The translations under genes and the position numbers were made by a program. Shown one piece after another: positions 16,578 through 18,173 of a stretch of 64,000 bases of DNA (its first letter is position 1; each line of letters starts with the position of its first letter). The stretch spans positions 2,545,341 to 2,609,340 of the forward strand of contig CAVYYE010000003.1 in assembly GCA_963772655.1 (NCBI GenBank), given 5' to 3'. Origin of the DNA: an uncultured delta proteobacterium (lineage in GTDB: Bacteria > Myxococcota_A > Polyangia > Haliangiales > Haliangiaceae). The notes beneath the pieces were generated by a model. That model ran no database searches. It was not told the origin of the DNA and saw nothing but the letters and a program-made list of their open reading frames with translations.

Positions 16578-18173
16578 ATGAGCGAATTGCCGTTCCGGCT
16601 GGCCGCGCGGATGAGCTCGGTCGAGCGCGCCGGCCCGTGGCAGGTTCCGCCCGAGGTCGAGCTCCGCACGTGGTGGGGCAACGTCGAGCTCGATCTCCGA
16701 GAGGCGACGTTCTCTCCCGGCACGACGACGTTCGACGTCCTGGTGACGATGGGCCACGTCGAGCTGATCGTGCCGCCACACGTCGAGGTGCGGATCGAGG
16801 TCGAGTCGTTCGCCGCGAGCATCGAGCAGCAGGGCGCGCCGGCGACGGCGTCGGCCGAGTCGGAGGGACAAGCTCCGGGCGAGACCACCGTCGTGTTGCG
16901 GCTGGTCGGCAGCGTGCGGTTCGGAAACCTCGAGGTGATCCGGTTGTGGCCGGGCGAGACCCGCCGCGATGCCTCGCGCCGGCGTCGCATGGAGCGCAAG
17001 CTCCGCCACGGCCACTTCGTCGCCGACCACTTTCACGATCACGGTCCGCATCACGACGACGTCGACGACGAGTCGTGCAGCAATCGCACCCGACGACGTC
17101 GACGACACGCAGCGCGTCGTCGGCAGCGCTGGCGCGAGCTCCACGCCGAACGCGAGCTGTGGCGGCGCACCCGCGATCGCGGCGAGCCGTGGCGACCGTG
17201 GTGGGTGATGGCACGCATGCGCCGGAAGATCTTCTTCTGGCTGGCGATCGCGCTCGGTGGCGGCATCGCGATCGGATTGCGGCTCGATGGAGCGCCGCGA
17301 TGGTGGTGGATCGTGATCGGACTGGTCGTGTTATCGATCATGTCGGGTGCGATCGCGTTCCGGCTGACCCGCCCGCTGATCCTCGCGATCAAGGCGGCGC
17401 GCGACATCGGCGACGGCAAGCTCGACACGCGGATCGACGTCGACAGCCACGGCGGCGAGACCCGCGTACTCGCGACCGCGATCAACGATATGGCCGAGAA
17501 GATCGAGCAACAGATCGCCGATCAGCGCCAGCTGCTCGCGGCGGTGTCGCACGAGCTGCGTACTCCACTCGGCCACATGCGCGTGCTGGTCGAGACCGCG
17601 CGCGGTTCGCCGTCGGGCGGGGAGCCGGTCGCCGGGGCGGGCGTGCAAACCAAGGCGCTCGACGAGATCGAGCGCGAGATCCTGGTGCTCGACGATCTGG
17701 TCGGCAAGCTCCTGGCGTCGTCGCGGCTCGAGTTCGGCAACCTCGAGCGACGGCCGATCGATCTCGGCGAGCTCGTCACCGATGCTGCGACCGCGGCAGA
17801 TGTCGATCCGGATGCGATCGAGGCGATCGGCGACGTGCGCGCCGCCGTCGATCCGACGCTGCTCCGGCGCGCGGTCGCGAACCTGCTCGACAACGCGCGG
17901 GTCCACGGCAAGGGCGTGGTGGCGGTGCGGATCGAGCGGCGCGCCGGTCAGGTCGCGATCGAGGTCGACGACGCCGGTCCGGGAGTCTCGGCCGAGCGGC
18001 GCGCCGATGCGTTTCGCGCGTTCGGGCCGTCGTCGGGAACGTCGGGAGGAGGATCGGGGCTCGGGCTCGGACTCGCGCTGGTGTCGCGGATCGCGGTGGC
18101 CCACGGCGGTGGCGCGTGGATCTCGGAGCGCCCCGGCGGTGGGGCACGGGTCGGATTCGCCGTCCAGGCGTGA
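16578..18173 (+). CDS. Sensor histidine kinase with a cytoplasmic N-terminal domain of about 200 aa and a His-rich linker, in place of a periplasmic sensor
   Basis: RBS GGAG. The N-terminus is not hydrophobic. After a beta-rich domain and a His-rich linker come two transmembrane helices separated by a tiny loop, IFFWLAIALGGGIAIGLRL and WWWIVIGLVVLSIM. The H-box is [11 protein letters not shown] and the HATPase domain carries DDAGPGV and GGSGLGLGLA. Confidence 0.85.
   Translation: MSELPFRLAARMSSVERAGPWQVPPEVELRTWWGNVELDLREATFSPGTTTFDVLVTMGHVELIVPPHVEVRIEVESFAASIEQQGAPATASAESEGQAPGETTVVLRLVGSVRFGNLEVIRLWPGETRRDASRRRRMERKLRHGHFVADHFHDHGPHHDDVDDESCSNRTRRRRRHAARRRQRWRELHAERELWRRTRDRGEPWRPWWVMARMRRKIFFWLAIALGGGIAIGLRLDGAPRWWWIVIGLVVLSIMSGAIAFRLTRPLILAIKAARDIGDGKLDTRIDVDSHGGETRVLATAINDMAEKIEQQIADQRQLLAAVSHELRTPLGHMRVLVETARGSPSGGEPVAGAGVQTKALDEIEREILVLDDLVGKLLASSRLEFGNLERRPIDLGELVTDAATAADVDPDAIEAIGDVRAAVDPTLLRRAVANLLDNARVHGKGVVAVRIERRAGQVAIEVDDAGPGVSAERRADAFRAFGPSSGTSGGGSGLGLGLALVSRIAVAHGGGAWISERPGGGARVGFAVQA

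Follow-up and report, generated by a model that had tools for sequence, protein, structure and literature searches.

Does this locus really encode a sensor kinase with a LiaF-like domain built into its own polypeptide, and if so, what could the domain do there? The locus lies in a 64,000-nucleotide stretch of contig CAVYYE010000003.1 (positions 2,545,341 to 2,609,340; hereafter the window) from an uncultured delta proteobacterium of the Haliangiaceae. An initial annotation, made from the letters alone, had described a histidine kinase with a cytoplasmic N-terminal domain, a His-rich linker and two transmembrane helices, alongside a His-rich partner taken to be periplasmic; overall that interpretation is partly supported. 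The fusion of a Toastrack domain to the kinase is well supported, both as an architecture and as a conserved family, and from it we infer a mechanism. The analysis itself establishes the architecture, the fold, the logic of the topology, the conservation, the operon and the upstream DNA element; the direction of regulation, the contacts of the partner and the nature of the stimulus belong to the inferred part.

The kinase and its N-terminal domain

The kinase and its parts are as follows.

16578–18173, + strand: histidine kinase open reading frame, 531 amino acids
16593–16943, + strand: Toastrack (LiaF-like_C) beta-helix domain, residues 6–122
16962–17072, + strand: short helix (residues 129–143), then a His/Asp-rich disordered linker (residues 144–165, with RHGHFVADHFHDHGPHHDD; AlphaFold2 (AF2) predicted local distance difference test (pLDDT) score below 50 for residues 147–165)
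17073–17177, + strand: Arg-rich segment and conserved juxtamembrane helix RRWRELHAERELWRR, residues 166–200 (helical in the AF2 model over 166–200)
17196–17366, + strand: membrane hairpin of PWW-MARMRRK plus first transmembrane helix (residues 207–236), loop (237–241) and second transmembrane helix (242–263), from hydropathy and AF2
17352–18158, + strand: transmitter of HAMP (residues 259–311), HisKA with H325 (316–385) and HATPase_c (425–527), Pfam E = 2e-9, 9e-11 and 5e-20

Every sequence string quoted in the initial annotation falls within this open reading frame, with WWGNVELDLREATFSPGTTTFDVLVTMGHVELIVPPHVEVRIEVES at residues 32–77 and RHGHFVADHFHDHGPHHDD at residues 143–161. Position 16578 is the first possible in-frame start after the upstream stop, and a Shine-Dalgarno motif, GGAG, lies 9 nucleotides 5' of the ATG. 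From there a single unbroken frame has a third-position GC content of 0.83–0.97, save for a dip to 0.60–0.67 over the Arg-rich linker, and the N-terminal region is conserved as protein in more than 100 homologues. The N-terminal 215 residues of the kinase are coding, and because they are both coding and conserved the internal Met at about 17214, which had been offered (as about 17215) as a possible true start, is not the start; all four of these observations speak against it. A broader form of the same doubt holds that the fusion is an artefact of annotation or assembly, the kinase beginning at an internal Met (about 17205–17214) and the upstream part being a separate gene or non-coding, and certain orthologues do begin just 20–60 residues ahead of the first transmembrane helix. 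However, 52 independent assemblies and at least 110 independent database proteins show no stop between domain and hairpin, and together with the unbroken frame and the Shine-Dalgarno motif this leaves the artefact practically no probability; we count it as already refuted by these data.

The Pfam family PF09922 (Toastrack or LiaF-like_C, which unifies DUF2154, DUF4097 and DUF2807) matches residues 20–120 with 34.0 bits, above its curated cut-off of 29, bearing out the proposal that the N-terminal domain is LiaF/DUF4097-like. Residues G19, W21, G34, D39, E62, P66 and G111 are invariant among family members and standalone relatives. Structures of Toastrack-containing proteins include 4QRK, and the domain is predicted to lie inside the cell, serving under the membrane as a docking surface with links to two-component systems, the sheets of the beta-helix giving flat interaction surfaces (PMC11237479). 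Sequence and profile searches of the PDB with the kinase N-terminal domain returned nothing significant.

A 19-residue Kyte-Doolittle scan finds just two hydrophobic segments in the kinase, at residues 218–236 and 242–263 with RLDGAPR between them, and Pfam places HAMP straight after the second. Since HAMP must be cytoplasmic, two segments imply a hairpin with both ends in the cytoplasm, and with them the first ~215 residues. This agrees with the initial annotation on two counts, that the helices are split by DGAPRWWW without a periplasmic domain and that the N-terminal end is cytoplasmic. The outer loop is about 5–7 residues long here and about 5–9 across the family, and Arg clusters lie on both cytoplasmic flanks of the hairpin. 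By this logic, and with no signal peptide, the N-terminal domain is predicted to sit inside the cell near the membrane. The full-length AF2 model (pLDDT 79, predicted template modelling score (pTM) 0.39) has helices at residues 208–236, from PWW-MARMRRK through the first transmembrane segment, and 242–278, from the second segment into HAMP, with a five-residue turn between them.

Conservation, read from an alignment of 38 members, is strongest in the Toastrack domain, the juxtamembrane helix, the motif PWW-x3-R-x-R, the hairpin and the entire transmitter. Within the juxtamembrane helix all members share E191 and W195, and nearly all share R184 and R192; the helix also occurs in most orthologues without Toastrack, though in the deepest-branching ones it is missing or degenerate. 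The invariants of the hairpin region are P207, W208, W209, R213, R215, F219 and W242, while those of the transmitter are H325, N435/N439, D464–G469 and G496–G498, its H-box, NLLDNA..HG, DDAGPGV and GLGLGL motifs being invariant or nearly so. With H, N, G1, F and G2 boxes and an adjoining OmpR-type regulator, the protein is predicted to be an active class-I (HisKA, OmpR-partnered) histidine kinase that is anchored by a hairpin and has no periplasmic domain. No NCBIfam equivalog reaches its cut-off for either the kinase or the regulator, which leaves the kinase outside every named orthologue group; the top sub-threshold matches to its core include RstB, heavy-metal kinases, EnvZ and CpxA.

Spread of the fusion

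A full-length search lists an identical protein (P0006) and 119 further homologues at 54–73% identity, and all but two of these 120 contain PF09922, HAMP, HisKA and HATPase_c. Their named sources are Kofleriaceae, Myxococcota, Myxococcales and Deltaproteobacteria, with one labelled Acidobacteriota. A word-indexed search with residues 1–215 alone had found 5 short proteins and missed the identical entry, understating the family, which the full-length search corrected. An exhaustive search of representative sequences with the same residues gave 958 relatives, and a histidine-kinase fusion is 1 of the best 150, a figure that is no measure of fusion frequency within the lineage because the family collapses at 50% clustering. 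The nearest sequence relatives of the N-terminal domain are SHOCT-like (DUF1707) plus Toastrack proteins, with 35–50% identity and E values down to 1e-28. The same Toastrack subtype is also seen at the C-terminus of Hanks-type Ser/Thr kinases arranged as Pkinase, DUF1707 (SHOCT-like) and LiaF-like_C (P0174 and P0264). Both contexts would fit Toastrack as a portable kinase-modulating module.

A scan of one genome per species gave 448 encoding stretches, and the locus counts given here use the best 80, from 80 different assemblies. All 80 are metagenome-assembled genomes (MAGs), nearly all labelled Kofleriaceae, Haliangiales, Myxococcales, Myxococcota or Deltaproteobacteria, with four labelled only Proteobacteria and one Acidobacteriota. 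All frames of these loci and of the window were translated and searched with profiles of the Toastrack part and of the kinase core. Toastrack is in the same frame as the kinase at 52 of the 81 loci and absent from about 25 complete orthologous kinases, and at none of the 81 does a separate Toastrack gene lie within about 5 kb; this answers the question, raised with the first description, of whether orthologues keep the domain fused or as a separate upstream gene. The fusion is therefore real, but the architecture that had been thought unusual is common in this lineage, as these 52 loci and the 110 or more database proteins attest. Two extra Toastrack hits are frameshifted parts of the same gene, the Toastrack and kinase portions falling in different frames of overlapping open reading frames in two MAG loci (L019, 391–801/626–2374; L035, 4800–5327/4970–6868), probably through assembly frameshifts and not because the gene is split.

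Some of the Toastrack-less kinases have a short His/Arg-rich tail of 20–60 residues ahead of the juxtamembrane helix and hairpin (L036, L049, L061, L062 and L066). Others have at the same position a Glu/Arg/Ala-rich charged low-complexity region of 100–190 residues that is probably helical (L043, L058, L060 and L063). We found no description of a Toastrack–histidine kinase fusion in the literature; in two passages of the supplement of Ravi et al., HISKIN occurs in gene-neighbourhood strings and no Toastrack+HISKIN single-protein architecture appears. The family is a lineage marker for signalling in Kofleriaceae and Haliangiales, which are represented almost entirely by MAGs in the collections searched.

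Partner protein, proposed mechanism and known systems

The kinase closes a triad of constant order, in which a Metal_resist/LTXXQ protein is followed by an OmpR-type regulator and then the kinase. This order is seen in 68–69 of the 80 loci, that is, at every locus with enough upstream DNA, and again on the contig of P0104; the regulator is directly upstream of the kinase in 69 of the 80. The first two genes in the window have the following features.

15275–15787, + strand: partner gene, first of the triad, 170 amino acids
15275–15322, + strand: N-terminal hydrophobic anchor of the partner, residues 1–16
15323–15337, + strand: RRARR of the partner, directly after the anchor
15338–15442, + strand: Gly/His/Cys/Trp/Tyr-rich linker of the partner, residues 22–56
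Residues 57–170 of the partner, + strand: CpxP/ZraP/CnrX-like helical domain ending in a conserved GWWR..GPYR tail (AGWWRHGPYR here)
15806–16492, + strand: OmpR/PhoB-type response regulator, 228 amino acids (Pfam Response_reg E = 9e-29, Trans_reg_C E = 1e-23)

The partner itself scores just under two Pfam cut-offs, those of Metal_resist (E = 1.4e-6, 28.9 bits against 29.2) and LTXXQ (E = 9e-4, 20.4 bits against 24.3), while its homologues match Metal_resist in 44 of 45 cases (E ≤ 0.01, best 1e-11) and LTXXQ in 40 of 45. It had no significant sequence match in the PDB, where a profile search gave CnrX at a non-significant E of 0.49, and NCBIfam returned nothing at all. By these matches the family assignment is good but not airtight.

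On which side of the membrane does the partner lie? Its start is fixed by an in-frame TGA four codons upstream and by AAGGAA 6 nucleotides before the ATG, and many homologues also have a nearby upstream stop. Across 66 loci the N-terminus follows M-I-C-L-A-x-G-L-G-x-L-G-F-x-A-x without Lys or Arg, the first of which comes at position 16–17, and the next 10 residues hold a median of 4 (RRARRC). By charge rules this is neither a signal peptide nor an N-in anchor, as no Lys or Arg precedes the hydrophobic stretch and RRARR follows it. Arg clusters right after a hydrophobic segment block Sec translocation. Together with the positive-inside rule this gives an anchor oriented N-out/C-in, with the linker and helical domain in the cytoplasm, so the partner is probably cytoplasm-facing and not periplasmic, which matches a kinase without a periplasmic domain. 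The initial annotation was right to call the partner His-rich, but its periplasmic placement runs counter to the predicted orientation of the anchor.

A periplasmic partner would nevertheless follow precedent. ZraP is periplasmic and CnrX is membrane-anchored with a periplasmic domain. The characterised CpxP and Spy are periplasmic too, the target of CpxP being the periplasmic domain of CpxA (PMC6737893). In such an arrangement the partner's only routes to the kinase would be its anchor, touching the hairpin, and the tiny loop, with Toastrack left as an unrelated cytoplasmic input, and AIA at positions 13–15 of the window protein might pass for a signal-peptidase site. Homologues do not keep the AxA pattern, however, a positive n-region is lacking while 4–5 Arg come directly after the hydrophobic stretch in the 66 loci, and the kinase offers a periplasmic loop of just 5–9 residues. 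We consider this arrangement improbable.

The His-rich linkers of both proteins raise a different possibility, that the system is a sensor of metal (Zn, Ni, Co or Cu) or pH at the cytoplasmic face, in which the linkers bind metal ions or titrate with pH, this binding being the stimulus, and Toastrack is a mere scaffold. Between Toastrack (or the N-terminus) and the first transmembrane helix, His makes up 12% of residues in the window kinase, with medians of 15% in kinases with Toastrack and 11% in those without, compared with 2% elsewhere in the protein. In the partner the 45 residues after the anchor include, by the medians, 8 His and 1 Cys, the Cys after RRARR being nearly invariant; such Cys/His clusters are suited to a reducing compartment, and the Pfam family that the partner matches, just under its cut-off, is described as 'Heavy-metal resistance'. 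Against this, the kinase linker has no conserved ligand positions, varies in length from 0 to 112 residues and is predicted to be disordered. The quoted stretch RHGHFVADHFHDHGPHHDD is not itself conserved, and the long His/Asp-rich insertion is confined to the nearest subclade of the window, most members having an Arg/His linker of 10–25 residues. The 80 loci share no conserved genes for metal efflux or uptake beside the triad, and all NCBIfam heavy-metal kinase models score below their cut-offs. Family-wide, Lys and Arg account for about 30% of the region ahead of the first transmembrane helix, and such basic, His/Arg-rich tails may simply bind anionic lipid. The His enrichment would thus fit metal sensing, pH sensing or plain lipid binding, and we rate metal or pH sensing with a passive Toastrack as unlikely, though less so than a periplasmic partner.

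The reading that we favour, at about even confidence, is a sub-membrane three-component system in which Toastrack serves as a cis-tethered modulator or docking surface. The hairpin, the His/Arg-rich juxtamembrane region and the tethered CpxP-like partner would perceive a stimulus arising in the membrane or at its inner face. Toastrack would be held beside HAMP and DHp by the flexible His/Arg/Asp-rich tether, with a basic amphipathic helix running into the first transmembrane helix, and the fusion would set the ratio of Toastrack to kinase at 1:1. As to the direction of regulation and the contacts made, Toastrack might bias the balance of kinase and phosphatase activity, by analogy with LiaF acting in trans on LiaS, or might dock the partner. 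LiaF inhibits the short-loop kinase LiaS, possibly as a pro-phosphatase factor, and is needed in excess over LiaS (PMC7191749).

Several points weigh against this proposal. The mode of contact between LiaF and LiaS is itself not known (PMC7191749), and the kinase and regulator here are of the HisKA and OmpR types, while those of Lia systems are of the HisKA_3 and NarL types. The members of the family are known here from sequence and predicted structure, the orientation of the partner is predicted from the positive-inside rule, and the full-length AF2 model, whose pTM makes inter-domain packing untrustworthy, shows no confident docking of Toastrack onto HAMP or DHp. The ~25 complete orthologues without Toastrack also count here, as does a neighbour-joining tree of kinase cores in which the basal branches lack the domain, the crown has it and two nested clades are again without it. 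It follows that Toastrack is not the primary sensor; its absence from related species indicates that it tunes a sensor rather than constitutes one, and by this phylogenetic pattern it appears as a modular accessory that was gained and then lost.

The repeated loss of the domain with retention of the system could also be explained if Toastrack were a passive oligomerisation or clustering module, arraying kinase dimers under the membrane without regulating the single kinase, and the flat surfaces of the beta-helix (PMC11237479) would suit such a role. The strong conservation of the domain, with its seven invariant residues, and the regulatory precedent of LiaF make this very improbable. The favoured modulator reading can be extended, more tentatively and at somewhat less than even confidence, to the whole triad. 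The module would then be an inside-facing counterpart of the Cpx, Zra and Lia envelope-stress circuits. A CpxP/ZraP-like protein moved to the cytoplasmic side of the inner membrane and a hairpin kinase with Toastrack in cis would together monitor not the periplasm but the inner leaflet or sub-membrane space, whether for metal, pH or stress on lipids or proteins.

The system resembles LiaFSR/VraTSR and Cpx/Zra and is a member of neither. Like the LiaFSR/VraTSR systems of Bacillota, it couples a cytoplasmic Toastrack to a histidine kinase with two transmembrane helices, a very short outer loop and HAMP. In those systems, however, the Toastrack belongs to an accessory protein whose gene shares the operon and which in B. 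subtilis is an inhibitor and possibly a pro-phosphatase factor, whereas here it is part of the kinase polypeptide, N-terminal to the hairpin. The four-helix LiaI-LiaF-TM region (DUF2157) of LiaF and VraT is missing, with no hydrophobic segment before residue 218 and no Pfam match, and the kinase is of the HisKA (PF00512) type with a Trans_reg_C regulator in place of HisKA_3 and NarL. No PspA, LiaH or LiaI genes are nearby, the host belongs to Myxococcota, and Toastrack is optional among the orthologues. With CpxP-CpxAR, ZraP-ZraSR and CnrX the system shares a small helical LTXXQ/Metal_resist-like protein with Gly/His-rich tails that is encoded with a two-component system. Known members of that group are active in the periplasm, on a sensor domain located there, while the kinase here has none and the partner is predicted to be cytoplasmic. 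E. coli cpxP is divergent from cpxRA (PMC6737893), in contrast to the three co-directional genes of the triad.

Three further groups are similar in part. Actinobacterial PspC-fused kinases (Ravi et al. 2024) also tie Toastrack to a two-component system without PspA and fuse a stress-sensing module to the kinase, but there the fused parts are PspC and LiaI-LiaF-TM, with Toastrack on a separate, divergently encoded PspC-Toastrack protein; here Toastrack is fused and PspC is absent. The SHOCT-like (DUF1707) plus Toastrack proteins and the Pkinase plus DUF1707 plus Toastrack proteins likewise place Toastrack near the membrane or on a kinase, yet their domain is C-terminal, their anchor is a SHOCT-like bihelix rather than a transmembrane hairpin, and none is a histidine kinase. 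Intramembrane-sensing kinases of the BceS, GraS and LiaS type join two transmembrane helices by a loop shorter than 10 residues, lack an extracytoplasmic domain and work with accessory proteins. They start essentially at the first transmembrane helix, whereas here ~215 cytoplasmic residues including a folded domain precede it, so the kinase has the minimal loop of this class and falls outside its strict definition.

How LiaF/VraT-type Toastrack proteins control kinases is the question that the fusion addresses. These are the systems behind daptomycin and glycopeptide tolerance in Gram-positive pathogens. The interaction of LiaF with its kinase has not been reconstituted, since cloning LiaF in E. 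coli for purification proved impossible (PMC7191749). A natural single-chain Toastrack-kinase argues for the domain acting directly on the kinase core and offers structural and biochemical studies a defined construct, with the Toastrack-less orthologues as built-in controls. If the system is indeed inside-facing, the fusion would be direct 'Rosetta-stone' evidence of Toastrack acting on histidine-kinase cores, and a cytoplasm-facing partner would widen the known range of the CpxP/ZraP chaperone and sensor family.

Upstream DNA, a possible mini-ORF and neighbouring genes

Two smaller features accompany the triad.

15199–15238, + strand: bipartite upstream element, TGCAATGTTTCTTCAC (15199–15214) plus GAAACA (15233–15238), conserved across related loci
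16489–16581, + strand: possible mini open reading frame (mini-ORF) of 30 codons, VRQARVAIVALAAYVAIAVSAAVGLAELST, with one hydrophobic helix; its membership of the system is uncertain

The core of the element, CTGCAA-K-GTTTCTTCA, occurs at the same position in 59 of 60 related loci (L001–L073), a median of 72 nucleotides before the ATG of the first gene, and GAAACA follows at a fixed 28-nucleotide offset in 54 of the 60. The window holds one copy of the core in its 64 kb, against 0 expected by chance. The element is probably the promoter or operator of the three-gene unit. Its geometry would fit a -35-like TTCACN, a 17-nucleotide spacer and GAAACA at the -10 position, with an activator site just upstream; GTTTC and GAAAC also form an inverted repeat. 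A sigma-70 consensus scan found nothing, and a sigma-54 reading was rejected by eye, the GG-GC spacing being too short.

The mini-ORF occupies the 85-nucleotide gap between regulator and kinase, overlapping the regulator stop by GTGA and the kinase start by ATGA, with GGAGGA 3 nucleotides upstream and a third-position GC content of 0.97. Its product could be a small single-helix membrane peptide. None of the 80 related loci has it; there the end of the regulator gene coincides with the kinase start or lies a few bases from it, and in the single annotated contig the two genes overlap by 4 bp. A frameshift joining its helix to the kinase, to give a LiaF-like transmembrane segment plus Toastrack, was considered and rejected, as a third transmembrane helix would place HAMP outside and the relatives have no such segment.

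In a targeted comparison, other neighbours of the triad in the window were common to at most 15 of the 80 loci. Divergent from the triad is an open reading frame of 729 amino acids (13131–15320, - strand) with long Pro/Ala/Ser-rich repeats of the PAAPSGAV type and then a C-terminal part with several transmembrane segments; it stands beside the triad in only 5 of the 80 loci. Matches to the profile of the histidine-kinase core (E from 1e-9 to 5e-20) also occur in several other open reading frames, at 45700–46806 (+ strand), 49152–55695 (- strand), 57224–58462 (+ strand) and 60174–61346 (+ strand). None of them has a Toastrack match, and the window is rich in two-component genes.

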